IMG/VR virus record: IMGVR_UViG_3300027770_000050
Span: 1 to 64,000 of that record
DNA: 64,000 nt
From: a virus
Strand: one strand, 5' to 3'
The notes under the pieces are model-generated. The model was not told the origin of the DNA, ran no database searches, and was given only the letters and a program-made list of their open reading frames with translations. Below, piece after piece: positions 6,001 through 59,814 of the stretch. Each line of letters begins with the position of its first letter. The stretch's first letter is position 1. Made by a program: the position numbers and the translations under genes.

Positions 6001-8627
6001 ATTCTAAATCCTTAAATGATATTTGGACTTATGGTTCCACAGTAATACATAGAAGTTCGCTTGGATTTACAAATTCTGGTATAGCAATAACTTCTTCACT
6101 TGTTTATTTTGGAGAAAACACTAACACTGAAGAAGCTGTAAACATTGCTAGTATTGGCTTACAGCCTCAAGGTGTAGTAGATATATTTGAGGTTGCCAGT
6201 GCTGTAGGTAATACTCAACAAATTTCTAAAGTTAGAGATTATCTCTATGAAAGAAGTTTATTGCGTCTATCTGATTTAAAAAATAGATATGCTAATGAAA
6301 GTGGATTGCAACTTACACTTAATCCAAAATCTAGTGCAAGCACAGGAACAACCATTTATTTCAGTACTGATAATACTAATACATTTACATGGAATACAGA
6401 TAAATATCCATACGCTGAAGTAGTAAAGAATTCTACAACACTTAGTTCAGGATATACTGTTTTACCATCGCAAGGTGCAGTATCGTTTACTTCAGCAATT
6501 ACTTCTAACGATGTTGTTATTTTAAAATTAAGAGAAGACTGGGACGGAAGTGTTTTGAATATTCCTTACAGTTCATCTGCATCTTCTTATATGATAGAGA
6601 GATGGTCAAAATCATATATCCCAGTCATTTCTATATTGACAGACGGAGATGATAATACTCAAAATGATTACACTAGTTTATCTGAAAATTTACAAACTAC
6701 TTGGAATAATCAAGGAGTAAAACCGTTAGTCTTTGTGACAGATAAATCTTCTAAGACACAAAAACTTAGAAAACTAGTAACAGACAATAATGGTTTACTA
6801 TTTGAAACATTAAGTGCATCTGATTGGACCGCAACTAACACTTCCTTAATTCATGGTGGAGCTAATAATTTATTTAGTGGCACATGGAATAAAGAAATTA
6901 AATTTGAAACACTTACTTACATAAAGAGTGTTCATACAAATTACACAGTATCATCCGGAGAAAGCATAGATAGTACTTGTGTAGTTCGCTTCAAATACTC
7001 TATTGATAAAAAGACTTACAGCGATTGGATAACAATTACTAGTAGTTACATATTAGATAAATTTATCACAGGATTTATTTTCGATATTGTTATGAAAGAA
7101 GGTTGGAATAATGGTACTAATATTGCAGTAAAACCATTTGTTCAGCAACTTTATTATATTCAAGTTGATCCTATTTCTGATTATATTTTTACTAATAACA
7201 TAACTTCAAATGGTAATGTTGTAAATTATTTACTTTCGTCAGATTATGATGATTACCTCAAGTCAAAATTATCTTGGGGAATTTGTCAAGGAAACTCTAC
7301 AAATTGGAATGATTATATTCCTTTGTTGTCAAACAAAAATGGAACTATAAGCAGCAGGCAAAAATCTTATAAGTTTACTCCTGAACAGACTTATGAAAAA
7401 CTTACATGTGTAAAATCTAACAATAATGATGTTTTATATTTTGCATACAATACGGGTAATAAATTTACTTGGTCTTCAGATGACACTGTTAAGATTTATA
7501 TTAACTCTGCAGAAATAGCATCATATAATTATATTTTAGATAACGTTAACGGAAGTGTAAAGTTCCGTTTACCAGTCACAAGTAATAATCTTGTTCAAAT
7601 AACTGTAATCAAACCAAAAGTAAGATACATTTCTCAAGGTGAAGGCACTATAACAAGTGACTATATAACTTATTATTTTGTTAATGGAAGATGGGCAGAA
7701 GATAGTAAAGTTGTAATTTATTCTGATAACACTATAGTCAGGGGTGGATATAAGCTAGATCGTAAAAATGGTAGACTTATATTCAACAAAGCAAGAAAAA
7801 CAACTGAAATTATAACTGCATCAATCACTCCATCATCTAACTACAGAATTGGATTAAAAGTTGATAAGTATAATTCATCTGCATCAGAAATTTATGATTT
7901 TAGTTTTATTTATTCTTCTGCAAAAAATACAGATGCATACGCTAAATATTTAAACACCCATATACCTTATATTGTCAAAGATAGTTTGATTCTGGGAAGT
8001 CAACTCTACAATTCTTCAGTTGGATCAAGCACTCAAATACCAATATCAAAAAGATTATTTGTAGATTATGATTATGCATCTTTAGAAAATAATCAAGAAT
8101 ATCCTCCTAAAGTTAAGTGGTATAGAACTAGGACTACTGGTATAGCATCTACTACCATTGAGCTCGATAGTAGTCCTAATTATAGAAATAGAATAGTTCA
8201 GCAAAATTCAGATACTAATGAAAATGGAGCTTATTTCCTTGAAAATGATCAAGTATATGTAACTGTAGAACCATATGACGGTCTTGATTATGGAATTGCA
8301 TATACGAGCGATCCGGTAATATTAAAAGATATAACTATTCCTTACGTTTATGATCTTAAGTATTCATCAAATAATACAATTGTAGATAGTACTTTAGTAT
8401 CAGGTTCTACTCTTATTGCTTCATATATGCCTAGCGATCTATCAAGCGATCAAGCTAAAGTAGAATGGTATGACTTGTCATCTATAGAAACTAGAAAAGT
8501 CTATGATGGTGTATCTTTACCACTGACATTTGTTTTGAAAGGTAAGATTTATTCCTTCACTGTAACTCCTTATGACGGAACTACTTATGGTATTCCAATT
8601 GAGAGTTTACCTATATATATAATATAG
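3..8627 (+). CDS. Giant virion structural protein (baseplate/tail-associated), probably 5'-truncated; contains tail module repeats, beta-propeller repeats, a vWA-like domain and C-terminal Ig-like domains
   Basis: The frame is open upstream of the ATG at 30 (W-Y-P-G-Y-D-Y-E-N-M). Two copies of AATT.NI.LSG...(I/V)D....G..(V/I)LVKNQ....NGIY.VASG.WTR. BNR/propeller-like motifs GTDNGVYRSFDGG and ATDNGIWYTIDDG. DVSIS...T...ILTDG. VTVEPYDG and FTVTPYDG at the C-terminus. Ser/Thr/Asn-rich. Confidence 0.7.
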   Translation, partial: WYPGYDYENMVSIERQLSGVNSIVGPGVINGWTVEKLSDSRANQLLLLNGYSSSSTSEYGLKLSALNLNFTITVTAATTVNITLSGVQTIDNVSVIAGDLVLVKNQSTAANNGIYIVASGAWTRHSSLDNSSDYTNNFVVYAEEGYINGNTLWIGVTSANSFSLGSTTLNFDDPFKQCVVVNPGNGIVSKYRAKTEKPFFFRYTADNTYYIWAEPGLSTLTSGFCNITSPANSDKNYNTYSNAVYLGTIKVSSDATYTNIQIVNSIVLEERRNHINETSGEFQRQLQLSYLKHKHIGDKNPSKINLQNYVHLLAQSSDNFGSFENSSIFLLKNQDGTNFSETLVNYGDPIVKVDGNTLVDTEYSITNVSPYTLYLKNTIKSTSKLDVVLPIADRKNLIAINSSYQKLVSALSLETYYTLSDGTIAQDTNPDGSIFDYYVPFSWGQYEYSIKGLYINDELIDTVHYSINNTSGTIYLNKSLPNYNNFTFEDLVLKIDKNQIEITGSLKNSNIESVSASKIKSGKISSNILDITHSNSYRYKEPCSFIPTKNLVAGIGRTILYPYNTSSVIQYNDSITSFYKSKNTSEDLFYVGGKRGISLLNINSNLSTQEFVNFADYGSTLDIQDNILVPENENYFKETYITNSLGKINIFKDEKISELKVPKNSIYQNIFVNKFFVSSNKIQSGSGNTITFSWQKDYCAATDSGVYFAQIAENAAVQDWYWRKISNVFTSAGTAATYFDNVKSVQEVTTKTINVISSDYNEVIYKKNIYAASTGTTSKGLYVGNISQLTQVTTDEVKGVYIINSGGYKNNILWWNDYDLYLTHATRLSTSTSGEYWTVAFEDTDASFTACNAATTTNIALSGIIVVDGYTPSVGNRILVKNQNNKTQNGIYVVASGSWTRATDFDASSEYISYKKISISSGTLYGSSIWFLKKIDAFTLGTNDVEWDIYKLKVYSTNTPSGATSRSVISCVIQKDNSKFYNEYLVGHSNGVARVLDLNNNNSSISYEELYWEQSLLGGINSLYYYDDNSNYGKLYAGTENGMFVSTELLWQPNTQSTSGNYRWIRTNNIFTEDDIDFTVFNKDYQSISNYSLIYPYQMVAIGTSYIPGQQFYYEKNFDKFTTEPWYPVQNDASGSNTRVMMYIGDSPSDIPFVTDAKNGEIYFTKSVSKDQINNVSVTVSRDFKTIVDGGTKPHTSEFVPLAKGKDPIALLAFTSSPIDTIIYLNQTIDSSLKLLMLKTDNNSEIVYIKSIDNTTYPIQVSLVNSRTLSNISFNAGTTVYSIKDDIVSGLEDDLQILLSQEKYNLSSANNTNVNTLSRALKKQIATLYDFSAPVVSQTDTRGLKNNNLVIDFLTSNSVDLLNSTYKNRTELVPNSNDIDSNPTIIRNIFDPSKDGTNTRLATNQGIWKFSDNYWELETTLDDAYDISYIVYDYNYNLIAGASNGIWKYSTSWIKDNSSEQKQNAYLTGYWDGELFEAFGKSNGLTVNVYNTDRTSFISDFLKLTSKNINGIFIGNHVKNQVSVTSFDCLHAAGDDGYYIISKGDKTSTFSPLLVARKMFFASNPDGVSKFYKSFQAYNIPAIPSVPEYSNMLFILTDDGVLRIKNWKYCYPDFSNANDFVIDARYLRSRHCFCFAIDKEETTTAVPGKSKIYIGTDNGVYRSFDGGYTFEPTQLLSNISVAVYDLKVFSSTYNSTVSNVLVAATDNGIWYTIDDGDNWYRAAEQTVSSLSPVLFKSQPSNDLKIVASDSNSLGYLAQTFSTSSTASTITKVSAYVTVRDQDRLSSASYNDSLSNSTVTAYVYSLDNNNYPDTLLASSSSKTYTDINLGGFTTFDLISDLDIPGSGTTSLALVLKEVSSSVPLFSWKKSNLNNPYTSGRAQYSSNDITWSGYSTSYDFFFKVHYDNISSPTLTYVPVGNYDNSAIDWEDAIYQGVLADDNGYLKLDAKFIVSNLFDVSISNQNSTGYSNISAGISTVIGSLVSRSANTVTSYVDASTYSYSKSLNDIWTYGSTVIHRSSLGFTNSGIAITSSLVYFGENTNTEEAVNIASIGLQPQGVVDIFEVASAVGNTQQISKVRDYLYERSLLRLSDLKNRYANESGLQLTLNPKSSASTGTTIYFSTDNTNTFTWNTDKYPYAEVVKNSTTLSSGYTVLPSQGAVSFTSAITSNDVVILKLREDWDGSVLNIPYSSSASSYMIERWSKSYIPVISILTDGDDNTQNDYTSLSENLQTTWNNQGVKPLVFVTDKSSKTQKLRKLVTDNNGLLFETLSASDWTATNTSLIHGGANNLFSGTWNKEIKFETLTYIKSVHTNYTVSSGESIDSTCVVRFKYSIDKKTYSDWITITSSYILDKFITGFIFDIVMKEGWNNGTNIAVKPFVQQLYYIQVDPISDYIFTNNITSNGNVVNYLLSSDYDDYLKSKLSWGICQGNSTNWNDYIPLLSNKNGTISSRQKSYKFTPEQTYEKLTCVKSNNNDVLYFAYNTGNKFTWSSDDTVKIYINSAEIASYNYILDNVNGSVKFRLPVTSNNLVQITVIKPKVRYISQGEGTITSDYITYYFVNGRWAEDSKVVIYSDNTIVRGGYKLDRKNGRLIFNKARKTTEIITASITPSSNYRIGLKVDKYNSSASEIYDFSFIYSSAKNTDAYAKYLNTHIPYIVKDSLILGSQLYNSSVGSSTQIPISKRLFVDYDYASLENNQEYPPKVKWYRTRTTGIASTTIELDSSPNYRNRIVQQNSDTNENGAYFLENDQVYVTVEPYDGLDYGIAYTSDPVILKDITIPYVYDLKYSSNNTIVDSTLVSGSTLIASYMPSDLSSDQAKVEWYDLSSIETRKVYDGVSLPLTFVLKGKIYSFTVTPYDGTTYGIPIESLPIYII

Positions 8628-8653
8628 GGTCTAATATATACAAAAAAGAATAA
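8626..8653 (+). promoter_or_regulatory. Putative phage promoter AGG-N19-GAATAA
   Basis: AGG at 8626-8628 and GAAT at 8648-8651, upstream of the subtilisin gene. The same spacing recurs at many other gene starts. Confidence 0.6.
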
Positions 8654-8676
8654 TATGAATTGTATAGGAGAAAAAA

Positions 8677-9630
8677 ATGGAAAATATACAATTCATACCT
8701 GATGAAGATTTACATGTAGTTTCAGTTCCCTTTGCAGCTTTGTCCCAAACACAAAACTGGGGTATGGCACTAGCTGCTATACAAAATGTTTGGACAGTAA
8801 CCAAAGGTGAAGGAATAAGAGTGGCTATTTTAGACACTGGAATTTCTGATCATACCGATTTGATTACAGCTTGGAAAAAAGACAATGCTATCAACTGTAC
8901 TTCTGATCCTACATGGGAAGATAAAGGCAGTGGACACGGTACTCACGTTGCTGGAATTATTGCTAGTAGTGATAATGATTTTGGTGTTGTAGGAGTTGCT
9001 CCAAATTGCGAAATAATTCCAATTAAAGTTTTAGATAGTAATGGTTCTGGTAATTATGAATCAATTGAAAAAGGACTTAGAAATGCTATTAACATGAATG
9101 TTGATATTATAAACATGTCCTTAGGATCATCAACTACTCCTCCTGAATCTCTGCACGATTTAATTAGACAGGCTGTTGCTCAGGGTATTGTGATAGTTGC
9201 AGCAGCTGGAAATGATGCTCATGCAGTTAATTATCCAGCAAGATATGACGAAGTTATAGCAGTCGCAGCGTTAGATCAAAATGGATGTTTGGCAACATTT
9301 ACTTCTAAAGATGAAACAATTGATATTGTGGCTCCAGGAGTTGATATATATTCAACACACCTGAATAACGAATATTGCAAAATGTCAGGTACAAGTCAAG
9401 CTTCCCCATTTGTTGCGGGTATATGTGCATTAATTAAATCTGCCTTGAAGAAACAAAATTTACTTCCTGAGTTTGGAAATCAATTTTGTCAAGCAGATAT
9501 GATGGTAGCTTTAAGAAACATATGTTCATTAGAAGCAGCACATATTACTCCTGGTGAAGAAAAGAATTGGGGACCTGGCGTTCCTAAATTAGCTAACGTA
9601 GATTGGCAAAATATTTTGGTCAAGAAATAA
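8677..9630 (+). CDS. Subtilisin-like serine protease (peptidase S8), intracellular type
   Basis: Catalytic triad motifs ILDTG, HGTHVAG and GTSQASP; oxyanion motif AAAGN. No signal peptide. SD AGGAG. Confidence 0.95.
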   Translation: MENIQFIPDEDLHVVSVPFAALSQTQNWGMALAAIQNVWTVTKGEGIRVAILDTGISDHTDLITAWKKDNAINCTSDPTWEDKGSGHGTHVAGIIASSDNDFGVVGVAPNCEIIPIKVLDSNGSGNYESIEKGLRNAINMNVDIINMSLGSSTTPPESLHDLIRQAVAQGIVIVAAAGNDAHAVNYPARYDEVIAVAALDQNGCLATFTSKDETIDIVAPGVDIYSTHLNNEYCKMSGTSQASPFVAGICALIKSALKKQNLLPEFGNQFCQADMMVALRNICSLEAAHITPGEEKNWGPGVPKLANVDWQNILVKK

Positions 9631-9651
9631 ACAAGAGCAAATAAAAAAATA

Positions 9652-9688
9652 ACTTCAGCTCTTCTTTTTTAAATAAAAGAGGTGAAGT
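9652..9688 (+). promoter_or_regulatory. Hairpin sequestering the SD of the signal peptidase gene
   Basis: ACTTCAGCTCTT (9652-9663) pairs with AAGAGGTGAAGT (9677-9688) with one mismatch. The right arm contains SD GAGGTG. Confidence 0.5.
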
Positions 9689-10147
9689 ATGAAACTTAGA
9701 TCTTTAGTGACTGGTGTTATAGGGTTGATATTAGCAAGTCTTCTTCTATTGCAACCTTATAAATTAGTTGTTGTTGTTGGAAGATCAATGCTTCCAACAC
9801 TTAAGGGCGGTCAAATACTTTTAGCTAAAAAAACAAATAGTTTTGAAAGAGGCGACATTATAGTAGTAAAAGAGGAAGAAAACATTATTATAAAAAGAAT
9901 AAAATATCTTCCTGGTGAATACTATTACACAGTCTTAGATTTTGATACATCCGAAATGCTATTTATAGATAGCGAGTATAGAGAAATGGTTGTAAGTATT
10001 AAAAAATATGGTTTTGATAATATAAAAAAATTCAAATTAAGCAATGATTCATATTTTGTGTTAGGGGACAATAGTGCAGAATCAGATGACAGTAGGAGAT
10101 TTGGTCCTATTCACAAAGAACAGATTTTGTACAAAGTAATAAGATAA
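9689..10147 (+). CDS. lepB: Signal peptidase I (peptidase S26)
   Basis: N-terminal TM segment; GRSMLPTL (catalytic Ser), IIKRI (catalytic Lys) and GDNSAESDDSRRFG (box E). Confidence 0.9.
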   Translation: MKLRSLVTGVIGLILASLLLLQPYKLVVVVGRSMLPTLKGGQILLAKKTNSFERGDIIVVKEEENIIIKRIKYLPGEYYYTVLDFDTSEMLFIDSEYREMVVSIKKYGFDNIKKFKLSNDSYFVLGDNSAESDDSRRFGPIHKEQILYKVIR

Positions 10148-10854
10148 TGATTAAAAAAGTACCAGGGGAGTTTCGAGGATTTTCATTAGATCTTAATTTA
10201 GTTGATCTATTGATAAAAACTTCCCAAAATTCCGAGAAGATTGATGATCCAGTAAAACAAGTAATTCAACTGGGTCTTCAATCTTCTTGTTCTATTTATG
10301 TAAGATCTGATTCTTCAAAATCACAATGGTCTGGAAGCGGATTTCATGCTGGAAATGGCTTGATAGTAACCGCTGGACATGTTATTCCTTTAGATGCTGA
10401 CATATCAGAGATAAATGTCTCTTTTGATAACAAGCAGTTTTATCCAGCTAATCCCATCAAGTCAGACCCCAATATAGACGCTGGTGTTATTTACTGTGAA
10501 GGAGCAAAAAGATTCCCAGATCTTAAACTTGGTGACAGCGACACTCTCGAAAAAGGTGACATAATCGCAGTTATAGGAGCTCCTGAAGGTTTTCATGACA
10601 CAGCAACTGTTGGTAGAATTTCTAATTTACATCAAGGATTAGGTCAAGGGGCCCCATCTCAAGCTTGGAATGACATTATTTTCGTTGATGCTGATATAAT
10701 GGAAGGTTCTTCTGGCGGTATGGTCATAGGAACAGATGGACTTGTCTATGGTCTAGTTATGGGTGTAACAGGCCAGCATGCAGACGTTGGCATTGGCGAA
10801 AGTTCTGTTTCCCCATCAAATAAAATAAAGAAGATTTTGGCTGAAATAGTATAA
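10147..10854 (+). CDS. Trypsin-like serine protease (S1, HtrA-like protease domain without PDZ)
   Basis: GSGF, VTAGHV (His), IDAGV (Asp), EGSSGG (Ser) and LGDSDTL. Confidence 0.9.
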
Positions 10855-10861
10855 TAATTTC

Positions 10862-11845
10862 ATGTCCAAAAATCCATATGAAATTCTTGGGGTTGATCAT
10901 AACTCTACATTAGATCAAATTAAGACAGCATATAGAAAGTTAGCTAAAAAATATCATCCCGATGTAAACAAAGAGTCTGGAGCTGAGGAAAAATTTAAAG
11001 AAATATCTCAAGCTTACGAAGATATTATTAGTCCAAAACCTCAACAGAATTTTCAACCTCCTCACAATCCTTTTAAGGACACACCTTTAAATAATTTCAG
11101 AAGATCATTAAATTTGCCAATAACACTTAGATTAGAGTTGGAAATTTCAGAAGCTTTTGAAGATCAATTAAAGTCTATTGAATATGATAGATTGCTTTAC
11201 TGCGAAGAGTGTAATGGTAACGGTGGACATGGTGCACAAAATATGTGTACTGATTGTATGGGATCAGGAGAACAATATGTAACTCAAAATCTTGGGTTCA
11301 TGTTCATCAGAAACTACGCAGGTCCATGTCATAAGTGTAGAGGTAAAGGTAGTTATTTCTCCAATACTTGCCAAAAATGTCAAGGTATCGGACATCATAC
11401 CAAACGTGAAATATTTAGAGTAACTCTTCCCAAAGGTTCTGCTTTTAAGGGAGTAGTTTTTGACGGTAGAGGTAATTATGGAGATCGTGAACAAAGTCCA
11501 GGAACTTTGTTTATAGAAGTTATAATCAAACAAAATGAAATATTGTTTTTCGATCAACAGTTAAATTTACATAATGAAATTTATGTTGACCCAATACAAG
11601 CAATAGTGCAACCACATTTTGCATATAAACATCCTAGCGGAAATATTTTGAAATTTAAATTCAATAATAGCGTCAAGAGTGGTTATGTACACATTGTTAA
11701 GAACAAAGGTATACCAACATCTTTAGAAACAAGATCAGACTTGCATTTGAAATTTTTGTATAATATACCAAAGGATCTTAGCGAAGAAGAAGAACAGTTC
11801 TTGAATTCATATATAGAATCAAGAAAAAGGAGAGATTTACTATGA
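10862..11845 (+). CDS. dnaJ: DnaJ/Hsp40 co-chaperone with zinc-finger domain
   Basis: J domain with HPD (YHPDVN), four CxxCxGxG repeats and a C-terminal substrate-binding domain. Confidence 0.93.
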
Positions 11846-12054
11846 GTATGGTCAAAAGAGCTACTGGAAAGATTGAAAAGTTTACAGATAGCGAGGGGCA
11901 TGAAGTACAAGCAGAAAATTTAGTTTGGGCAGATGAGAAGAATGATTCTCCAGCACCAATCAAAGATGAACTTGTAATCCCTTCAACAACTGGAATGGAT
12001 TTAGATATTGATGCATCTGATGAAGATGACACTGTAATAGCTAAGGATTGCTAA
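11842..12054 (+). CDS. Small acidic hypothetical protein
   Basis: ATGA overlap with the dnaJ stop, upstream SD AGGAG, 70 aa. Confidence 0.65.
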
Positions 12055-12055
12055 G

Positions 12056-12490
12056 ATGGAAAAATTGATGTCCATATTCACCAATACACAAAATGATCTA
12101 ATTTTATTTTTAATTTGTTGTGTTGTAGGGATTGCAGTACTTACCTATCTAGCTAAATTTACAGCTGATACCAAAGTTACGTTAAATACACTGCAAGTGA
12201 TCAAGATTGTTCTCGAAGCAAAATTGGGGTCTAAAGCTGGTAAAATTTTAGACATATGGATCGAAGGTCTTAATAAGATTCAAGATGGTGAGTTTTCTGT
12301 AACGGATGGAGTTGATCAATTTGTTAGATTCATTCGTTTAGGAGCAGCATCCAAGGGTATTGAACTTGATGATGAAGATATTGAGAAAATCGAAATGCTC
12401 GTCCTTAGCACTCTTGAAACATTTATAAGTAAGCACCCAAAACAAATTACAACTGCTGTAAATAAATTCAACGCAATGAATTCTAAATAA
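12056..12490 (+). CDS. Hypothetical membrane protein (single N-terminal TM; possibly holin-like)
   Basis: Hydrophobic segment LILFLICCVVGIAVLTYLA followed by a helical soluble domain; tightly packed in the operon. Confidence 0.6.
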   Translation: MEKLMSIFTNTQNDLILFLICCVVGIAVLTYLAKFTADTKVTLNTLQVIKIVLEAKLGSKAGKILDIWIEGLNKIQDGEFSVTDGVDQFVRFIRLGAASKGIELDDEDIEKIEMLVLSTLETFISKHPKQITTAVNKFNAMNSK

Positions 12491-12509
12491 TTTATTTTAT
12501 TTTTATCTG

Positions 12510-12543
12510 ACAACCATTTTGTTGACACCAACAAAATGGTTGT
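12510..12543. repeat. Perfect 15-bp inverted repeat (terminator, cruciform or operator) upstream of the helicase
   Basis: ACAACCATTTTGTTG-acac-CAACAAAATGGTTGT followed by TTCTTT. An extended -10 TGTTATAAT lies at 12551-12559. Confidence 0.8.
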
Positions 12544-12566
12544 TTCTTTATGTTATAATGGTTTAT

Positions 12567-14333: not shown

Positions 14334-14353
14334 TCTACGCCATTGTAGATTAT
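14330..14353. terminator. Hairpin between the convergent helicase gene and the small ORF
   Basis: ATAATCTAC-gccatt-GTAGATTAT, a 9-bp stem without a clear U-tract. Confidence 0.45.
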
Positions 14354-14361
14354 GAATTACC

Positions 14362-14433
14362 TTACATTTGCATTTTGAATAATGCTGAAATTACTTGATT
14401 CATCATCTCTTCAATTTGTTCAAAAATCTTCAT
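14362..14433 (-). CDS. Unannotated 23-aa peptide MKIFEQIEEMMNQVISALFKMQM
   Basis: Strong SD AGAAGGGGGTGA 5 nt before the ATG; open frame to TAA; amphipathic helical pattern. Confidence 0.55.
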   Translation of the reverse strand: MKIFEQIEEMMNQVISALFKMQM

Positions 14434-14456
14434 AATAATCACCCCCTTCTTAACGT

Positions 14457-14489
14457 AAAAAAACCGCTGATTAATACCTTCAGCGGTTT
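14457..14489 (-). terminator. Intrinsic terminator/attenuator-like hairpin upstream of the 23-aa ORF
   Basis: Minus strand AAACCGCTGA-aggtattaa-TCAGCGGTTT-TTTT: a 10-bp stem ending in a run of 7 T. Confidence 0.65.
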
Positions 14490-14530
14490 ACACTATAATA
14501 TTATACCTGTTATCAGAGAATACCTTTTGC

Positions 14531-14558
14531 AAGTGCATTTATACTAAATAGGGAATAA
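14531..14558 (+). promoter_or_regulatory. Putative phage promoter AAG-N19-GAATAA
   Basis: AAG at 14531-14533 and GAATAA at 14553-14558, upstream of the gene at 14584. Confidence 0.55.
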
Positions 14559-14583
14559 GAAATTACCTTTGGAGGAGGAAGCC

Positions 14584-14937
14584 ATGTTTCATCAAACAAT
14601 AGTCGGAAAGCCTAAGCATTGTCTTAACAGGAACTGCAAAACTCCATTTACTAAAAACTCTCATCTTGGTTGGTTGCCAAAATCAGAAGTTGAAGTTTAT
14701 GCAATTATGAGATGTCCTAAGTGTAAAGATACGTTTGCTGTTGTTCAATTAATTTCTATGGCTCATGATTATAGAAATGACTTACCAGCTGATCAAACGA
14801 AAATATCGAAATCTGGTCCTATAACCAAAAGTGAAACTCTGTCATTTAGAAAAAAACTTGAAAATAAAGATGCTTTGAAAGAACTTTTTGAAGGATATAA
14901 ACCTGGAGGAACTGTTTTACCAGAAGATCCAGAATAA
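14584..14937 (+). CDS. Putative zinc-ribbon hypothetical protein
   Basis: CLNRNC...CPKC. Strong SD GGAGGAGG before ATG 14584 (the ORF track starts at TTG 14569). Confidence 0.7.
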   Translation: MFHQTIVGKPKHCLNRNCKTPFTKNSHLGWLPKSEVEVYAIMRCPKCKDTFAVVQLISMAHDYRNDLPADQTKISKSGPITKSETLSFRKKLENKDALKELFEGYKPGGTVLPEDPE

Positions 14938-18613: not shown

Positions 18614-18643
18614 TTATTCATTATAAGTTAGATGCTTCCCTTT
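18614..18643 (-). promoter_or_regulatory. Putative phage promoter AAAGG-N19-GAATAA
   Basis: Minus strand AAAGG-gaagcatctaacttataat-GAATAA. Confidence 0.6.
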
Positions 18644-20143: not shown

Positions 20144-20182
20144 AGCTTTTATTTTCCTGCAATTAAGGTGTGTATTCCTTAT

Positions 20183-24895: not shown

Positions 24896-24950
24896 AATGC
24901 TGTGATGTTTTATATCACAGCATTATACCCAAAACAAGGGTTTTTGTCAA
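24896..24950 (-). promoter_or_regulatory. Consensus sigma70/sigmaA promoter of gyrBA with an overlapping 11-bp inverted repeat
   Basis: TTGACA (24950-24945)-N17-TATAAT (24927-24922). Palindrome AATGCTGTGAT-N7-ATCACAGCATT at 24896-24924. Confidence 0.9.
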
Positions 24951-26046: not shown

Positions 26047-26108
26047 ATTTTATCTCTCTTGATAAATTGTTATTATATTTTTTCAAATACGAAATGCTTT
26101 TACCTTTA

Positions 26109-33360: not shown

Positions 33361-33388
33361 CTTTTCTTTTTTATGCTTGGTGAGCCCT
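33361..33388 (-). promoter_or_regulatory. Putative phage promoter AGG-N19-GAAAAG
   Basis: Minus strand TAGG-gctcaccaagcataaaaaa-GAAAAG upstream of phoH. Confidence 0.5.
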
Positions 33389-34394: not shown

Positions 34395-34422
34395 AAGAGT
34401 TTTATAAAGATTTAAAGAATAA
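34395..34422 (+). promoter_or_regulatory. Putative phage promoter AAG-N19-GAATAA
   Basis: AAG at 34395-34397 and GAAT at 34417-34420, 9 nt before the ATG of the first MWY gene. Confidence 0.55.
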
Positions 34423-37518: not shown

Positions 37519-37599
37519 ATCTCTCCTCCAGATATCTATAGTATTATTTTATTCGACACTTATTTCCTACCTAGATGTATAATAAAAATAGGTAAATAT

Positions 37600-38967
37600 A
37601 TGTCAAAAAAGTCCCTTGCCAAAACAGTATGTAATTTTTGTGAACGTCCAGCTAGTAAAGAAGTTATCACAGATATTGAAGTATTAAGCGAATTATTGAC
37701 GGGTAAAAGCTTAAATATTTCTTTATGTACTTTTTGTTTTCAAAGTTATCTTGCTGGAAATAAATTTGGACAGATGCAAGTACATCAAAACATTCTTTCT
37801 ATGATTATAAACGCAGATGAAAAAGCTAGTGTTTTGTCTCTCAAAGAAAGGATCGCTGAAGTTGCTCCTGTATCTAAAAGACATCTTTTTGGTTTAAATA
37901 ATTACAGACTGAAGAATACTAGTCCACACGAGCTTTATGAGGCTTTGGAGAAAAAAGTAGTTGGACAAGATTTAGCTAAGAAAAGATTAAGTATTGCTGT
38001 TTACGAACACATAAGAAATATTATCAATGAAGATGTTTCAGAAAAGCAAAATATTTTGTTCCTTGGTCCTTCTGGTAGTGGAAAAACATTAATTGTAAAT
38101 ACAATCTCAAGTCACTTAGAAGTTCCATTTGTTTCTGGAGATGCAACTTCTTTTTCTCCAACTGGTTTTCAAGGTAGTGATGCTGATAGCTGTATTACTG
38201 ATCTTTTAATCAAAGCTAATGGTGAAACATCTTTAGCTGAAAAAGGTGTTGTTTTTATTGATGAAATTGACAAATTGGCTTCATCTCATAATTCTGCAAC
38301 AAGATTAGAAAGTTTTCATTATTCTACTCAATCAACATTGTTAAAGTTAATTGAAGGCAAAAAAGTAAAGATAAATCCAAATGCTCTGGGTGAACAAACA
38401 ACATTCCCTTACGTTGTAGACACTTCTAAAATCTTATTTTGCTTTGGTGGAGCGTTTAATCATTTAGAGAAAATTGTAGCTAAAAAGTTAGGTTTATCTG
38501 AAGGCTCAATTGGTTTTAGAAAAAATAATAAGTTAGAATACGAAAACCAAATAAAAAACTATGAAATTTACAACAATGTCTCACACGATGTTCTTGTTGA
38601 AAGTTTAATTGAATATGGATTAGCTACTGAATTTGTTGGAAGATTGCAGTCTATAGTTCCTCTTGTTCCATTATCTAAAGAACAAATGCTATATTGTTTG
38701 AAAGATTTAGATAATTCTCCAATAAAGAAAACTATTTTATTGTTTGCTGAATCAAATGTAGAAGTTGAATTTGATGAAAAATATTTTGATGCAGTTGTAG
38801 AAAAAGCTATTAAGTCTGGAACTGGAACTAGAGCTCTTAATTCAATTGTTAAATCATCAATTTCACAAGCAGCTTTTAGTTTATTAGGAAAAGTTAACTC
38901 AAGCAGGAAGCATATTGTTTTAACAGAAAAATGCGTTTCTAATCCTAATGAATATTTGACACTTTAA
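37600..38967 (+). CDS. clpX: ClpX-like AAA+ unfoldase
   Basis: N-terminal CNFC...CTFC zinc domain, VVGQDLAK, Walker A GPSGSGKT, Walker B FIDEIDK, GGAF, IGF loop, EFVGRL and sensor GTRAL. Confidence 0.92.
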   Translation: MSKKSLAKTVCNFCERPASKEVITDIEVLSELLTGKSLNISLCTFCFQSYLAGNKFGQMQVHQNILSMIINADEKASVLSLKERIAEVAPVSKRHLFGLNNYRLKNTSPHELYEALEKKVVGQDLAKKRLSIAVYEHIRNIINEDVSEKQNILFLGPSGSGKTLIVNTISSHLEVPFVSGDATSFSPTGFQGSDADSCITDLLIKANGETSLAEKGVVFIDEIDKLASSHNSATRLESFHYSTQSTLLKLIEGKKVKINPNALGEQTTFPYVVDTSKILFCFGGAFNHLEKIVAKKLGLSEGSIGFRKNNKLEYENQIKNYEIYNNVSHDVLVESLIEYGLATEFVGRLQSIVPLVPLSKEQMLYCLKDLDNSPIKKTILLFAESNVEVEFDEKYFDAVVEKAIKSGTGTRALNSIVKSSISQAAFSLLGKVNSSRKHIVLTEKCVSNPNEYLTL

Positions 38968-38995
38968 AGGATTAGAGCATCTTGAGTTTGAATTA
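38966..38995 (+). promoter_or_regulatory. Putative phage promoter AAAGG-N19-GAATTA
   Basis: AGG at 38968-38970, GAAT at 38990-38993, ATG at 39005. Confidence 0.6.
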
Positions 38996-45393: not shown

Positions 45394-45422
45394 ATTTCTG
45401 AATAAGCTTCTTACATACCTTT
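45394..45422 (-). promoter_or_regulatory. Putative phage promoter AAAGG-N19-GAAAT
   Basis: Minus strand AAAGG-tatgtaagaagcttattca-GAAAT. Confidence 0.6.
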
Positions 45423-45478: not shown

Positions 45479-45506
45479 AAGTTACAAGACCTAAAATTTT
45501 GAATAT
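45479..45506 (+). promoter_or_regulatory. Putative phage promoter AAG-N19-GAATAT of the fibre operon
   Basis: AAG at 45479-45481 and GAATAT at 45501-45506. Confidence 0.55.
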
Positions 45507-54189: not shown

Positions 54190-54942
54190 ATGCCTTTAAG
54201 TACATTTTCTAGTCAACATAGACCTGTAAATAGAATATTTTCAACTAGTGTAGCTGCAGTAGTTAGTTCTGGATTAATTTGTCACTTAAAAACAGCTCCT
54301 CCTACAGGATCAACTTGGACTGACAATGTAGGAAATAGTAATGCAACTTTAGCTAATAGCCCAACTTATTCTAGCAGTAACGGTGGGTACATATCCTTAA
54401 ATGGCTCTAACCAATATGTTATGACTTCAACATCTCTAAATGCACAGATTACTGGAACATCGCCTAATAAATCTACTGCGCAATCAATTTTTATTTGGTG
54501 CTATCCTACTGAGCAAGGGATTATAGTTTCTGAAATAGGACAAGCTACTATAAATACTGGCTGGCACGATTCTAACATTGAAATTACAAGTTCAGGAGTT
54601 GTTTGTTTTAGTGTATGGCACGGGTCACTTACTAACAAGGTTTCCAGTACTGCAAAATCTTTTAACACTTGGTATCACTTAGGTTGGACTTACTCTGGAA
54701 CTACACTTACTGCATATATAAATGGAGTGTCAGTTGGAACAGCAACTTTGACAAGATCAGCTCCTTTTAATAATGGCAATAATTTACATTATGCTTTAGG
54801 AGCTATCGATGGCACAAAAATGGATAGCGACGGATCCTATTGTGCTATGAATGTAGGTAGTTTCCAAGTATATAACAGAGCTTTAACAATTGATGAAGTG
54901 ACAACTAACTTTAACAGTAATAAGTCTAACTATGGGTTATAA
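54190..54942 (+). CDS. LamG/concanavalin A-like lectin domain protein 1
   Basis: NTWYHLGWTYSG...YING...YNRALT..EV..NF. Confidence 0.85.
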   Translation: MPLSTFSSQHRPVNRIFSTSVAAVVSSGLICHLKTAPPTGSTWTDNVGNSNATLANSPTYSSSNGGYISLNGSNQYVMTSTSLNAQITGTSPNKSTAQSIFIWCYPTEQGIIVSEIGQATINTGWHDSNIEITSSGVVCFSVWHGSLTNKVSSTAKSFNTWYHLGWTYSGTTLTAYINGVSVGTATLTRSAPFNNGNNLHYALGAIDGTKMDSDGSYCAMNVGSFQVYNRALTIDEVTTNFNSNKSNYGL

Positions 54943-54945
54943 ATA

Positions 54946-55629
54946 ATGGGAACTAAATATAGTCCAAGAATAGTCTCCAGTGGATTATTAGCATATTTTG
55001 ATGCTGCTAATACAAGAAGTTATATCGGATCTGGAACAACTGTAAATGGTCTCATAAGTGGAATAGGATTTACATTAGTCAACGGTGTAGGTTTTGGTTC
55101 TACTAATAACGGACATTTTATTTTTGATGGAATTGACGACAATATACCATTTTCAATACCTAGTCCTGGCACAATTTTATCAATTGAAATGTGGGTAAGA
55201 GCAAAATCATTTTCAAATAATGGAATGTTTTTTGGATTTAATATTTATGATGTTTGGACCGGAAATGGAGGATTAGGATACAACACTGGTGCTTCTGATG
55301 TTTATGGATTGACATCAACTCAAGTGACTAATCTTGACCTTCTCAATCAATGGAAACATTATGTCTTTGAAATGAGAAGTGATGTAGCGTATACAAATAA
55401 TAAAATTTATGTTAATGGAGAAAATCAATCTTTATCACAAGTTTCAGGTTCTGAAAGTGCAGCTAATAGAAATTTCAATAGTGGTAATGGAAGAATAGGC
55501 AGTTGGCTTTCTTCTAATAATTTTTTTATGGCAATGGATCATTCTCAATTTAAAGTTTACAACAGAGCTTTAACAGCTGCAGAAATAGTACAAAATTATA
55601 ATGCTACAAAAAGGAGATATGGATTGTAA
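54946..55629 (+). CDS. LamG/concanavalin A-like protein 2
   Basis: DAANTRSY.GSG...FDG...WKHY...YNRALTAAEIVQNYNATKRRYGL. Confidence 0.85.
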   Translation: MGTKYSPRIVSSGLLAYFDAANTRSYIGSGTTVNGLISGIGFTLVNGVGFGSTNNGHFIFDGIDDNIPFSIPSPGTILSIEMWVRAKSFSNNGMFFGFNIYDVWTGNGGLGYNTGASDVYGLTSTQVTNLDLLNQWKHYVFEMRSDVAYTNNKIYVNGENQSLSQVSGSESAANRNFNSGNGRIGSWLSSNNFFMAMDHSQFKVYNRALTAAEIVQNYNATKRRYGL

Positions 55630-56303
55630 TGGGACTAGGACATTCTCCTACAATTATCACTGATGGATTAGTGTTTTCTTTAGATGCTGCTAATTCTAGA
55701 AGTTACAGTGGTTCTGGAACTTCTTGGTATGAAATAAGTGGAAGTGGTAGCACAGCAACATTATCAAACAGTCCTACATTTTCTTCTATTAATAACGGAG
55801 GATTTATCTTTAATGGATCAAATCAATATGCTACAGTTCCAACAGCAAGTAGATTTGATTTTTCAACAGGAAGTACCACCGTTACGGCTTGGTTTAAATT
55901 AACATCTTCAGGTTACAATTGTATAGTATCTAAAAGAAATGGTACTGGTTTTCAGCTTTATTCTTTATCAGGAAAATTGTATGCGGATGGTGCTGGAACT
56001 GCAGGTAAATCTTCTTCTCAATCTGTTAACACTGGAAATATATTTTATGGAGCTGTAGTTTATGATAGAGCTTCATCTTTAATGCGACTTTATATAAATG
56101 GCGTAGAAGATGGAAATGTTGCCCTAGATTCTACAACACTTACAGACGTAGCTGGTGTAAATGTTGGAAGAGCTACTCTTGGCGGCGGTTCTTCAGACTA
56201 TTTCAATGGCACTATTTATCAAGTACAAATTTACAACAGAGCTTTATCAGCTACAGAAGTCAAACAAAATTACAATGCTACGAAAAGAAGGTTCGGATTA
56301 TAA
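55629..56303 (+). CDS. LamG/concanavalin A-like protein 3
   Basis: Same conserved termini; TAATG coupling. Confidence 0.85.
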   Translation: MGLGHSPTIITDGLVFSLDAANSRSYSGSGTSWYEISGSGSTATLSNSPTFSSINNGGFIFNGSNQYATVPTASRFDFSTGSTTVTAWFKLTSSGYNCIVSKRNGTGFQLYSLSGKLYADGAGTAGKSSSQSVNTGNIFYGAVVYDRASSLMRLYINGVEDGNVALDSTTLTDVAGVNVGRATLGGGSSDYFNGTIYQVQIYNRALSATEVKQNYNATKRRFGL

Positions 56304-56989
56304 TGGGCATTGACGTAGGACCTATCGAAGTTACTGATGGATTGATATGCCAATTTGATCCAGCAAACTTTAGAAGTTATTCTGGCTCTGGATTAACCTC
56401 ATATGGTTTGGTAGGGGGTATTGGAGCAACTCTTGTCAACGGGACTGGATACACTTCTGATGGCGGAGGAAGTTTTGTTTTTGATGGTACTAATGATTAT
56501 GTTATCACCTCTGCAAACGTTGGACCTTTAGGAGCAAATCCACGAACAATCTGTATTTGGTTTTATATTCCAAGTGCTCAAAGTAAAAATGTTTATGGAT
56601 ATGGGCAAGGAACTACAGGATCGATATTTGACATAATAACTTGGGATAACAGTGGATATAACAGAGTAATTGGACATTATTGGTCCGGTGGATATGACAC
56701 TATAGGAACCTTGCCACCAAGAAATACCTTAAATGTTCCTGGATGGAATTTTGTAGTCCATACTTATAATGGAAGTGCAGTATCATTATATACAAATACA
56801 GTTTTTTCTAATTCTACTAATTTAAATCTTACTACTTTGGATGGACCTTTAACTTTAGGAAAAGGTACATATAATGGCTATGATCATTTTACAGGTAAAG
56901 TTTCAAACATTCAAATCTATAACAGAGTACTGACTGATCAAGAAATGTTACAAAATTTCAACGCTACAAAAGGGAGATATGGATTATAA
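56303..56989 (+). CDS. LamG/concanavalin A-like protein 4
   Basis: Same conserved termini; TAATG coupling. Confidence 0.85.
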   Translation: MGIDVGPIEVTDGLICQFDPANFRSYSGSGLTSYGLVGGIGATLVNGTGYTSDGGGSFVFDGTNDYVITSANVGPLGANPRTICIWFYIPSAQSKNVYGYGQGTTGSIFDIITWDNSGYNRVIGHYWSGGYDTIGTLPPRNTLNVPGWNFVVHTYNGSAVSLYTNTVFSNSTNLNLTTLDGPLTLGKGTYNGYDHFTGKVSNIQIYNRVLTDQEMLQNFNATKGRYGL

Positions 56990-57690
56990 TGGGACTTGAG
57001 CACTCTCCTACTATTGTGACAAATGGATTAGTTTATTATCTCGACGCTGCTAATACAAGAAGTTATAGTGGTTCTGGTCTTACTGCCAATAGTTTATCTG
57101 GTAGCTTAAGTGGAAGTCTTGTCAATGGTGTTGGTTTTACATCTTTGAATAATGGCAGTTTTCTTTTTGATGGAACTAATGATGTTATAGATCTTGGTGA
57201 TAATTTTGACATGGGATTATCAAGCTTTTCTTTTTGCGCTTATTTTAAAGCTAATAATATTTCAAATCTTCAAGGGATATTTTCAAAATCAATTGCTGCT
57301 GCTGCTGGATCAAGATATGCAGTTTTTGTATACAATAATAAAATAAATACTTTTATGAGTAATGGTGGTGCAACAGATGTTGAAACACCCTCAAGTCAGA
57401 CATTATCTATAAATACTTGGTATCACATCGGAGCTGTTTACAATAGAGCTGATAAATTAATTCTGTTCATAAATGGAATTTTTGATTCATCAGCGACAAT
57501 ATCTCAGTTTCAAGCAAATGATTTTCAAGCAACACATATATTTAGAATTGGATCTTACAGTGATGCAGGCAACAGTGCAAATTATTTCTTAAATGGATCT
57601 ATATCTCAACTTCAAATTTACAACAGAGTTTTATCAGCTCAGGAAATACTTCAAAATTACAATGCTACTAAAGGGAGATATGGACTGTAA
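56989..57690 (+). CDS. LamG/concanavalin A-like protein 5
   Basis: Same conserved termini; TAATG coupling. Confidence 0.85.
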   Translation: MGLEHSPTIVTNGLVYYLDAANTRSYSGSGLTANSLSGSLSGSLVNGVGFTSLNNGSFLFDGTNDVIDLGDNFDMGLSSFSFCAYFKANNISNLQGIFSKSIAAAAGSRYAVFVYNNKINTFMSNGGATDVETPSSQTLSINTWYHIGAVYNRADKLILFINGIFDSSATISQFQANDFQATHIFRIGSYSDAGNSANYFLNGSISQLQIYNRVLSAQEILQNYNATKGRYGL

Positions 57691-58388
57691 TGGGCATTGA
57701 ATATAATCCAGTTGTCCCTACAGATGGACTTGTTTATTGGTATGACACTGCTAATCCAAGATCTTTCCCTGGATCTGGAAACACGATGTATAGTTTACTA
57801 AATGGGTCGATTATGACCTTAAATAATGGATATACAACTTTCGGTACTGGTGCTGGTTTAGCTGTTTCTTTTACAGGAACAGATGCTTACACTATGACGC
57901 AAACCAATCTATATAGTCAATTTCCAACAGCTCAAACATCAATGTTTATTTGGGCATATTCAGTTGGATCTGGAAATATAATAACTGAATTGGGACAAAC
58001 AATTCCAAATGCTGGTTGGATAGATAGCAACATAGAGATAAATGCTTCTGGAAATGTGTCAATGTCTGTTTGGCACGGAAGTTTAGCAAACAGAGTAATA
58101 AGTAGTGCTTTGAGTTTTAATACTTGGTATCACATTGGTTGGACTTATAATGGGACAAGTTTCATTGGATATATAAATGGAGCTTCAATAGGAACAACAA
58201 CATTAGGTAGAAGCAGAAATGGAAGTGCAATTCATTATACTATTGGAGCAACTGCATCTAATCAAAATATGGGCACAGGTACTTATTGGAAAGGTATGTT
58301 TAGTAACTTCTCTGTTTACAATAGATCTTTGTCAAGCTTAGAAGTTTTACAATTTTACAATGCCACTAAAAGTAGGTATGGATTATAA
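57690..58388 (+). CDS. LamG/concanavalin A-like protein 6
   Basis: Same conserved termini; core similar to copy 1. Confidence 0.85.
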   Translation: MGIEYNPVVPTDGLVYWYDTANPRSFPGSGNTMYSLLNGSIMTLNNGYTTFGTGAGLAVSFTGTDAYTMTQTNLYSQFPTAQTSMFIWAYSVGSGNIITELGQTIPNAGWIDSNIEINASGNVSMSVWHGSLANRVISSALSFNTWYHIGWTYNGTSFIGYINGASIGTTTLGRSRNGSAIHYTIGATASNQNMGTGTYWKGMFSNFSVYNRSLSSLEVLQFYNATKSRYGL

Positions 58389-59071
58389 TGGGCATTGCAT
58401 ATAACACATCTATAGTTTCCGATGGTCTTGTTTATGCCATTGATGCTGCTAATTCAAGATCTTATGCAGGGAGTGGATTGACACTTTATGATTTGTATTC
58501 AGGAACAGCTACAACACTTATCAATGGAGTTGGAATTACAAGTTTTAATTCAGGTGCATTTGTTTTTGATGGTTCTAACGATTACATAAACCCAAATTTC
58601 CCAGTAAGTAATAATTCTGATTTTACAGTTGGATTTTGGATGAATTATCAAGATGTTACTAATGTTGATAGAGGGCTAGTAGCAACATGGGATACAAGCT
58701 GGAACGGATTTGGCATAGGAACATATCAAGCACAAATTAGATCTTGGGTAAATGATGGAGCTGGAGGTGGATTGAACTGGGCTGGAATTACTACAAATGT
58801 ATGGAAATATTACACTCTTGCGTTTAGCAATTCAGCAAAGACTCAATTCGTATATATTGATGGAAATTTCTTAGCCAGTGAAGGTAGAAATGCAACAGTT
58901 ACTCATTCTAGTTTACAAATAGCTAGAGGGGGACAATCAGGCTCGACACAGTTGACTTATTATCCATATCTAAAATGTCAAATATCTCAACTTTCAATTT
59001 ATAACAAAAGACTTTCAAATGCAGAAATCAAGCAAAATTATAACGCTACAAAGAAGAGGTATGGATTATAA
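58388..59071 (+). CDS. LamG/concanavalin A-like protein 7
   Basis: Same conserved termini; TAATG coupling. Confidence 0.85.
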   Translation: MGIAYNTSIVSDGLVYAIDAANSRSYAGSGLTLYDLYSGTATTLINGVGITSFNSGAFVFDGSNDYINPNFPVSNNSDFTVGFWMNYQDVTNVDRGLVATWDTSWNGFGIGTYQAQIRSWVNDGAGGGLNWAGITTNVWKYYTLAFSNSAKTQFVYIDGNFLASEGRNATVTHSSLQIARGGQSGSTQLTYYPYLKCQISQLSIYNKRLSNAEIKQNYNATKKRYGL

Positions 59072-59781
59072 TGGGAGTAATAGCTGGAGTAAATGCTGTC
59101 AATGATGGTTTAATTTTTACCATTGATGCTGGAAACTTTAGATCATATTCTGGTTCTGGAAATACTTCTATTGGTTTAGTAGGTGGTATAGGTGGCACTC
59201 TTGTAAATGGAGTTGGATTTACAAGTACAAACAGTGGAAGTTTTATTTTTGATGGCACAAATGATTATATTGAAGTATCTGATTCTAATTTGCTTGCTTT
59301 TGGAACCAATCCTTTTACTATAGATTTTTGGTTATATTCTACTTATATATATCCAGGATCTGGAACAATTTACAGAACAATTTTGAGTAATTATTTAGAT
59401 TACCAGGGAGTCTATGCTACATTTTTTTATTTGGGTTTATTTAATAATGGCAGCACTTTGATTAATTTTGTAAGTTTCCTAAATTCCTCATCAGGAAATT
59501 TAATGGGTTCACTTGGAGCAAATATAAATGCAAATGAATGGACAAATGTAAATTTCACAAGAAGTGGTGACAACTTAATTTGTTATAAGAATGGTGTTTT
59601 AGTATCTACAGTAGTTTCTACAAATAATTTTTCAGGAACTCGTAATGCAAGAATTGGCGGAGGTGTCGCCTCTGTAAATACGTTTCAAGGGTCTTTACCT
59701 TCATTCAAAATCTACAATCGAGCATTATCAGCTGCAGAAATCAAACAAAATTACAACGCCACTAAAAAGAGATACATCTAG
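59071..59781 (+). CDS. LamG/concanavalin A-like protein 8
   Basis: Same conserved termini; ends YNATKKRYI. Confidence 0.85.
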   Translation: MGVIAGVNAVNDGLIFTIDAGNFRSYSGSGNTSIGLVGGIGGTLVNGVGFTSTNSGSFIFDGTNDYIEVSDSNLLAFGTNPFTIDFWLYSTYIYPGSGTIYRTILSNYLDYQGVYATFFYLGLFNNGSTLINFVSFLNSSSGNLMGSLGANINANEWTNVNFTRSGDNLICYKNGVLVSTVVSTNNFSGTRNARIGGGVASVNTFQGSLPSFKIYNRALSAAEIKQNYNATKKRYI

Positions 59782-59786
59782 TCGCT

Positions 59787-59814
59787 AGGTCTTATAGGTT
59801 ATATTTTAGAAAAG
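59787..59814 (+). promoter_or_regulatory. Putative phage promoter AGG-N19-GAAAAG
   Basis: AGG at 59787-59789 and GAAA at 59809-59812. Confidence 0.55.

Follow-up and report, generated by a model that had tools for sequence, protein, structure and literature searches.

We analyzed the first 64 kb of an 86,315-bp virus contig (IMG/VR record IMGVR_UViG_3300027770_000050), a stretch of 64,000 nucleotides (nt) hereafter called the window, for a two-part sequence element, A(A/G)G-N19-GAA(T/A), which recurs upstream of genes on both strands and resembles the promoters of the bacterial sigma factor sigma-H (SigH). The contig is rated 24% complete and represents about a quarter of its genome. The window encodes very large structural proteins, tail-fiber genes and a run of Laminin_G_3 paralogues, together with gyrB, gyrA and a PIN-PhoH protein. 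It also carries an unusual set of chaperone and protease genes, comprising a subtilase, a signal peptidase, a trypsin-like protease, DnaJ, DnaK, a ClpX-like ATPase and a second J-domain protein. Its GC content ranges from 27 to 39%, and no tRNA genes were found in it. Because the same DNA occurs in freshwater and lake metagenomes (for 32000-41900, 24 runs listed from 20 studies, all of them DNA contigs and none RNA) and relatives in IMG/VR reach 300-358 kb, the window is a fragment of a giant freshwater phage.

An initial annotation of this DNA, made from its letters alone, had listed nine copies of the element with an exact 19-nt spacer, a 20-nt variant at 20179 and an 18-nt variant at 26105, the latter two on the minus strand. 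All nine N19 copies were present where they had been reported, and so was the N20 variant, which reads AGG-N20-GAAA. The 18-nt variant exists as well, but an exact N19 copy can also be read there from the A at 26106 (26081-26106), and the N19 sites consequently number ten. These putative sigma-H-like promoters and the genes that they precede are given below (ORF, open reading frame; aa, amino acids; SD, Shine-Dalgarno).

8626..8651, plus strand: AGG-N19-GAAT, its AGG overlapping the TAG stop of a 2,865-aa ORF; target, the subtilase gene, with its ATG at 8677, 25 nt past the end of GAAT, and an SD-like sequence present.
14531..14556, plus strand: AAG-N19-GAAT, preceding a 116/122-aa ORF and the DnaK block; the ATG at 14587 lies 30 nt downstream, after a GGAGGAGG sequence.
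18616..18641, minus strand: AGG-N19-GAAT, preceding the 338-aa ORF 17535-18551(-); TATAAT abuts GAAT upstream.
20153..20179, minus strand: N20 variant AGG-N20-GAAA, directly past a terminator-like hairpin; target, the 79-aa ORF 19904-20143(-), with its ATG 9 nt past GAAA and no SD sequence, a candidate leaderless start.
26081..26106, minus strand: AAG-N19-GAAA, preceding the 159-aa ORF 25567-26046(-).
33363..33388, minus strand: AGG-N19-GAAA, preceding the PIN-PhoH gene 31947-33314(-).
34395..34420, plus strand: AAG-N19-GAAT, occupying a 35-nt divergent gap; target, ORF 34430, with its ATG 9 nt past GAAT and no SD sequence, a candidate leaderless mRNA.
38968..38993, plus strand: AGGA-N18-GAAT, directly after the stop codon of the ClpX-like gene and the nearest match to the SigH consensus; target, ORF 39005, with its ATG 11 nt past GAAT and no SD sequence.
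45395..45420, minus strand: AGG-N19-GAAA, preceding the 169-aa ORF 44812-45321(-); one arm of a divergent pair.
45479..45504, plus strand: AAG-N19-GAAT, preceding a 1,838-aa ORF and the tail-fiber/Laminin_G_3 block; the other arm of the divergent pair.
59787..59812, plus strand: AGG-N19-GAAA, preceding a 1,301-aa tail-fiber gene with a Peptidase_S74 chaperone domain.

The targets had been described as mostly structural or tagged genes. This holds in part, but the protease/DnaJ block, the DnaK block and the PhoH gene are also preceded by sites.

The frequency of the element was evaluated against gene gaps. Genes were taken as the longest non-overlapping ORFs from a crude caller, which gave 16 gaps of at least 25 nt, each with a padding of 3 nt. 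In the promoter orientation, facing a downstream gene, these gaps provided 19 region-strands with 1,906 nt; the orientations that face no gene provided 13 region-strands with 1,062 nt. One ORF of 50 aa (14395-14547) was dropped from the gene list; if it is kept, the site at 14531 falls in a gap shorter than 25 nt and the count in promoter orientation becomes 9 of 18. Over the whole window the element occurred at chance level, with 48 matches versus 52.05 +/- 7.19 expected (100 shuffles), and its spacer profile was flat (31-66 matches for N10-29). The promoter-oriented gaps contained 10 matches, distributed over 10 of the 19 region-strands, while the 13 opposite ones contained none. Shuffled regions yielded 0.85 +/- 0.89 (mononucleotide) or 1.01 +/- 1.01 (dinucleotide) matches, and 10 were reached by none of 2,000 shuffles of either kind. 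Thus, the pattern is no commoner than in composition-matched random sequence when the whole window is counted, but this is false for the gaps that face a gene.

Because the pattern had been fitted to these very regions, we scored all patterns of the same form, that is, every combination of a 3-mer with a 4-mer, neither having more than one two-fold degenerate position, at spacers of 12-23 (352 x 1,792 patterns x 12 spacers, or 7.6 million). In this exhaustive two-block scoring, A(A/G)G-N19-GAA(T/A) ranked first of the 7.6 million, with a log10 P of -8.66. Among 100 shuffled sets, the top pattern reached -7.82 at best and -5.79 +/- 0.58 on average. When the words were fixed and the spacer was varied from 0 to 44, a control that is independent of composition, we obtained 10 matches at N19, 6 at N20, 3 at N21 and 0-3 at the other lengths. 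The observation of a recurrent two-part signal in the window is confirmed.

Relatives of the phage, found by a search with the ClpX-like protein at 47-69% identity, carry the element as well. In nine non-redundant 21-kb loci, N19 gave 23 matches in 89 promoter-oriented regions and the other spacers gave 1-13, while the 49 opposite orientations had none. Three near-complete relatives (G001-G003), in which sites occupy orthologous positions with diverged spacers, were scanned as whole contigs. G001 contained 29 N19 matches versus 5.7 +/- 2.4 after shuffling (maximum 15 in 1,000), with 6 in the wrong orientation; G003 contained 16 versus 2.7 +/- 1.7, and G002 contained 14 versus 5.1 +/- 2.2. Across the window and these three relatives, the N19 peak has a shoulder at N20.

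Individual sites told the same story. Upstream of PhoH, AGG and GAAA are exactly 19 nt apart in the window and in six of the nine relatives' loci, and the spacer between them has diverged. In loci L001 and L004, the homologue of ORF 34430 still has A(A/G)G-N19-GAAT upstream, with 8-9 nt between this element and the ATG, and a divergent promoter pair, as at 45395-45504, is also present in L004. After the stop codon of the ClpX-like gene, TAAAGG is kept in six relatives' loci, with a -10 word that varies (GAAT, GTAA, GAAA or AAAA). Most of the genes downstream of sites in G001 lacked a PHROG match (20 of the 28 tested), and the few that had one were protease-, endolysin-, structural-, PhoH- and NUDIX-like. 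Judged by its sequence, the motif represents a genuine and conserved class of promoter with a likeness to the sigma-H promoters of bacteria.

Two sites of the window are accompanied by further sequence features. An inverted repeat, AAAACA-N6-TGTTTT, lies at 45367-45384, just downstream of the promoter at 45420(-), and repeats like it come after the orthologous promoters of L001, L010 and L011. Its possible roles are those of an operator or of a hairpin in the 5' untranslated region of the 169-aa ORF. Downstream of the PhoH promoter, at 33330-33362 on the minus strand, a stretch reading ACTGTGAT-(T/C)A-(T/C)AA-ATC is partly conserved in L001, L002, L005 and L006, and only the window has a TATAAT within it. 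This stretch could be a start-site region or a second, overlapping promoter.

Other discovery procedures were applied to G001 and did not lead to the motif. In occurrence-based two-block discovery against a composition null, A-run/T-run terminators dominated the output, and spacer-specific z-score discovery placed a hairpin repeat, AGG-N10-ACCR, at the top. This intergenic repeat of G001 (L089-L106) reads AGG-N10-ACC(A/G), with CCT-N10-GTCA as its other arm, and is present in about 12 copies versus 0.1 at other spacings; two of the copies also fit the promoter pattern. The repeat was not found in the window. In an AGG-anchored base profile, the AGGs of Shine-Dalgarno sequences diluted the signal too strongly for it to be of use. 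The support for the motif in G001 consists of its spacer profile and the shuffles only.

We then compared the element with the SigH promoter, which is described in the accessible text of PMC12456013 as a -35 AGGA and a -10 GAAT separated by 17-18 nt. Writing AGG-N19-GAAW (W, A or T) as AGGN-N18-GAAW places the spacing of the phage element within this range, and the statement of the initial annotation that SigH recognizes AGGA and GAAT at this spacing agrees with the geometry given in that source. The phage element resembles in part, in its -35 AGG(A) and its -10 GAA(T), the SigH promoters of Bacillus, Clostridioides and other Firmicutes, and it shares with them the spacing and an A/T-rich flank after the -10. 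Base counts were made over 69 strict sites, taken from the window and the three relatives. In these counts, in which AGG or AAG was set by the search pattern, the second position of the -35 is G in 38 of 69 sites. One site of the window, at 38968, has the full AGGA.

The distance between the motif and the start codon provided a further line of evidence. At 15 of the 69 strict sites the start codon lies 8-9 nt past GAAW, versus 2.6 expected from random placement in the gaps, and none of 20,000 simulations reached 15. An SD-like word was present at 2 of the 19 genes located 6-12 nt from GAAW, versus 29 of the 48 genes with longer leaders. In G001, 17 GAAW words lie at this distance of 8-9 nt, and 8 of them have ARG (R, A or G) at N19. 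Taking the A of the ATG as +1 would place GAAW at -12 to -9 and its first A at -11, the position of the key adenine in the -10 elements of sigma-70-family promoters. The internal consistency of this geometry is an argument both for the motif being a promoter and for some of its transcripts forming a leaderless subclass. The candidates in the window are ORF 34430 (9 nt), ORF 39005 (11 nt) and the 79-aa ORF 19904-20143(-) (9 nt, N20 variant). As in known leaderless mRNAs, the start codon coincides with the predicted transcription start and lacks a Shine-Dalgarno sequence; unlike in hosts where leaderless transcription is genome-wide, the predicted transcripts here form a subclass of one phage promoter type, and they are proposed from promoter geometry alone.

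Not all units of the window carry the motif. Two sites matched the sigma-70 consensus instead:

24922..24950, minus strand: sigma-70-type promoter TTGACA-17-TATAAT, a 12/12 match, upstream of gyrB-gyrA.
37579..37606, minus strand: sigma-70-type promoter TTGACA-16-TATTAT, an 11/12 match, upstream of the small-gene block from 37518 to 35800(-).

The first of these bears out the assignment of gyrBA to TTGACA/TATAAT made in the initial annotation. The gyrB promoter region, at 24896-24950(-), overlaps a terminator-like hairpin (24924-24896) followed by a T-run, and this hairpin is probably the terminator of the upstream 203-aa gene. TATAAT words, but no sigma-H-like site, are present in two gaps, 37519-37599 and 44057-44134. 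In promoter orientation, the extended -10 word TGnTATAAT occurred 10, 5 and 11 times in the three relatives, versus 1.8, 1.0 and 1.3 after shuffling, while the Bacteroidetes promoter word TAnnTTTG was not enriched. In agreement with the initial proposal, which favored other promoters over those of T4 type, the T4 late TATAAATA word was not enriched: it occurred 8 times in the window versus 9.59 +/- 3.07 expected, never in a gap of at least 25 nt, and 3, 2 and 3 times in the relatives versus 4.7, 2.2 and 3.3 expected.

Which factor might read the motif? The initial annotation had proposed a phage-encoded sigma-H-like factor or the host's own sigma-H, and had suggested that the full genome be searched for the gene. 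We found a SigH-like gene in the large contigs of four relatives, but none in this contig. Searches with the sigma-70 family profile PF04542 gave 2-4 matches in each of these relatives (G001-G004). Eight of the sigma proteins were scanned against NCBIfam, and three of them, 231-263 aa in length, constitute the SigH-like type, whose gene adjoins a clamp-loader gene. This type scored best on five SigH/PRK08295 models, which it matched over its full length (105-117 bits for the three proteins, profile positions 8-215), with 52-57 bits on the generic sigma-70 model and at most 40 bits on SigF/SigK models. Its best chain in the PDB was 3mzy, annotated as 'RNA polymerase sigma-H factor' (E 2.3e-14), and the next chain was at 4e-5. 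In region 2, DREDV-QE is common to the phage and cellular proteins, and so is, in region 4.2, the helix K-x-V/I-DNAL-x-R-I/V-K/R-K/R-K (in short, KxVDNALxRIxKK).

The phage sigma is 74-97% identical among the 120 clusters listed, which include contigs of up to 337 kb, and the JGI name for these proteins is the catch-all 'sporulation-specific sigma factor'. No isolate phage in the GenBank collection carried this protein. The sigma gene is located inside a long operon and has no adjacent gap. The relatives also encode other sigma factors: ECF-like and SigB/F/G-FliA-like proteins of 183-191 aa were observed in L081 and L085-L088, one type beside a putative polymerase clamp-loader subunit.

In five more distant giant phages, the sigma gene was found in none. 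Neither of the gene-less giant phages that were scanned whole had an N19 peak (2 matches versus 5.0 in G009, 6 versus 4.3 in G005), and the pooled distant loci L012-L080 had none either. Thus, the peak is present in three of three whole relatives with the gene and in zero of two without it, in a sample that is small and phylogenetically clustered. The SigH-like gene of the close relatives probably reads the motif, and the sigma gene of this phage is expected in the missing part of its genome.

Our model suggests that most transcription units of this phage would start with a phage-specific promoter, (t)aA-A(G/A)G-N19-(A)GAA(T/A)-Aaa, in which ARG would be the -35 element, at about -34 to -32, and GAAW the -10 element, at -12 to -9. 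It would be read by the host core RNA polymerase carrying a phage-encoded sigma of the sigma-H lineage. A minority of early-type units, gyrBA included, would use ordinary sigma-70 promoters and the primary sigma of the host. At about one in five of the sigma-H-like promoters, transcription would start at the A of the ATG and produce a leaderless mRNA, while the others would give leaders of 20-80 nt with Shine-Dalgarno sequences. The natural reading of this arrangement is a system of two tiers, with the host sigma serving a few early units and the phage sigma then serving most of the genome, an order that we infer. As a whole, we consider it likely that the motif is a phage-specific promoter read by a phage sigma-H-lineage factor on the host core polymerase, alongside a sigma-70 minority and a leaderless subclass.

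Several points weigh against this model. The match to the SigH words is partial: position 4 of the -35 has A in 28 of the 69 sites, T in 25, G in 12 and C in 4, and the last base of the -10, after a GAA that is set by the pattern, is A in 36 and T in 33. Half of the defining SigH promoter bases are only partly kept, and little is conserved beyond the seven defining positions. The four promoter-oriented gaps in the remaining 22 kb of the contig contained no strict match, and the ORF caller that supplied the gene starts was crude. In G002 the peak is weak (14 matches, with a shuffle maximum of 13 and 11 matches at N18); moreover, the three positive genomes are relatives of each other and the negative controls number only two. 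As for the factor, the PF04542 search returned no match in this contig (86,315 bp, 24% complete), and the protein is deduced from relatives, whose ClpX-like proteins are 47-69% identical. The phage protein missed all curated SigH cut-offs (TIGR02859 / PRK08295, 208-414 bits); because it scored under every one of them, we call it SigH-like and not SigH. Its cellular relatives, in Clostridia, Bacillales, Fusobacterium and Chthonomonas, are just 32-36% identical. Finally, the relatives encode two or three further sigma types, any of which is a possible reader of the motif.

Other explanations were considered. The motif could be a real promoter served by a sigma factor of the host (its own sigma-H or a different alternative sigma), with the phage SigH-like protein doing another job. 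The fit to cellular SigH geometry and the lack of a sigma gene on the contig itself agree with this, and the extended -10 TGnTATAAT promoters and frequent Shine-Dalgarno sequences would fit a low-GC, Gram-positive-type host. We nevertheless regard it as unlikely. All four large relatives encode the highly conserved SigH-like gene, and the two giant phages that lack it have no peak. In addition, the DNA comes from freshwater and lake metagenomes and, to our knowledge, sigma-H-bearing Firmicutes are not abundant in freshwater or lake plankton.

A related explanation keeps the phage in control and assigns the motif to another of its sigma factors, ECF-like or SigB/F/G-FliA-like, with the likeness to sigma-H being a coincidence. 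The 2-4 sigma-70-family proteins of each relative, of at least three types, make such readers available. However, the words and the spacing fit the printed SigH consensus, and the recognition helix that cellular SigH-like proteins have in region 4.2 is retained in the phage SigH-like protein. The typical words are AAC/CGT in ECF promoters and TAAA/GCCGATAA in FliA promoters. We doubt that this explanation is correct.

The element might also be conserved without being a promoter, as a binding site for a phage regulator or as an RNA-level signal between genes. Many sites start 0-5 nt from the upstream stop codon, and two G001 matches belong to the hairpin repeat, as such a role would allow. Against this stand the strict orientation of the sites to the downstream gene, which includes both arms of divergent gaps, the presence of two blocks at a fixed helical spacing typical of sigma-70-family promoters, and the 8-9 nt to SD-less start codons, as expected of a -10 element located at -12 to -9. 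We find a non-promoter role very improbable. That the motif is a chance pattern, chosen by eye in A-rich intergenic DNA, is scarcely credible: its whole-window frequency at chance level, its low information content and the lack of strong conservation outside the chosen positions would suit such an origin, but the window shuffles, the ranking among 7.6 million patterns and the N19 spacing peak speak against it, and it is rejected by the replication in the loci and whole contigs of relatives, which lay outside the data of the initial annotation.

The model of a phage sigma-H-lineage factor reading this promoter class has known counterparts. In phages SPO1 and T4, early genes are transcribed from host-type promoters and a phage sigma then switches the host core polymerase. 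As with SPO1 gp28 and gp33/34 and with T4 gp55, a phage sigma would here redirect the host core polymerase to a private promoter class; unlike those factors, it would belong to another sigma lineage and read other promoter words, the T4 late word not being enriched here. The system would also resemble SigH systems in that the presumed reader is a protein whose best family and structure matches are to SigH; unlike in these systems, the presumed factor is phage-encoded and falls under the SigH cut-offs, and its regulon would be the phage's own genes and not those of the host stationary phase. The kind of system, a phage sigma with a private promoter class, is known, and the leaderless subclass adds to it.

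Among published phage sigmas, SPO1 gp28 and gp34 are named as such by Schwartz et al. (bioRxiv 10.1101/2021.11.12.468384). According to the accessible part of that work, the sigmas of Bacillus phages resemble sigF/sigG, act on host sporulation genes and are, some of them at least, dispensable, while sigH figures there as a bacterial reference sequence only. The factor proposed here is like those proteins a phage-carried homologue of a Firmicute-type alternative sigma; unlike them, it resembles SigH, and promoters of a matching class are distributed across the phage genome. In a paper on human-gut phages, SigH appears, in the text available, under the catch-all K03091. A full-text literature search, within the accessible portions of the sources it covered, found no report of sigma-H-type promoters or SigH-like factors in giant phages.

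Almost no transcription signals have been described so far for giant phages known only from metagenomes. A promoter class that is replicated in four genomes and accompanied by a candidate sigma would mark the transcription units and true start codons of a widespread freshwater phage group, including leaderless ones that lack a Shine-Dalgarno sequence. It would also provide a test case for the extent to which sigma-H-type recognition is kept in a protein about one-third identical to the cellular factor. The 'sporulation-specific sigma factor' labels in this clade may denote ordinary phage transcription switches rather than tools for host dormancy. As a wider and tentative proposal, in which we have limited confidence, giant phages of about 300-360 kb that form a cosmopolitan freshwater clade might run most of their genome by a private regulon, made up of a conserved, deeply diverged sigma-H-lineage factor and AGG-N19-GAAW promoters of which about one-fifth are leaderless; the host may be a non-Firmicute, and a 'sporulation-type' sigma would then have been recruited as a general phage switch.

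Searches for the host with GyrA and DnaK, in a set where each species is represented by a single genome, reached identities of no more than 39% and 45%, respectively, in scattered phyla; the exception was one DnaK match at 58%, on a 5.7-kb contig of a metagenome-assembled genome. With the sigma profile, a match at 76% was obtained on a 7-kb contig that had been placed in a Bacteroidetes bin; this contig is probably a fragment of a phage. We also considered whether the phage belongs to the moraphage lineage. In the accessible text of PMC12619734, moraphages also have DnaK and DnaJ and a freshwater habitat, their DnaK is said to fall within Flavobacteriaceae, no RNA polymerase genes are reported, and 'sigma' occurs only in a cited title. 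This placement was rejected, as the moraphage DnaK is placed within Flavobacteriaceae and the DnaK found here is not.

Beyond the promoters, the regions 8677-17044 and 33390-38967 are dense in protein-folding and protease genes for a phage, with a signal peptidase I, a full-length DnaJ, a MerC-like membrane protein and the ClpX-like AAA+ ATPase among them. At 54190-59781, on the plus strand and beside the tail-fiber genes, nine ORFs of 224-250 aa are arranged head to tail with overlapping stop and start codons. The three that were scanned are Laminin_G_3 (concanavalin-like) domains, and similar sequences precede each start, so that the region looks like an array of paralogues. Past the window, at about 76.1-86.3 kb, the contig ends within one open frame that spans at least 3,402 codons.

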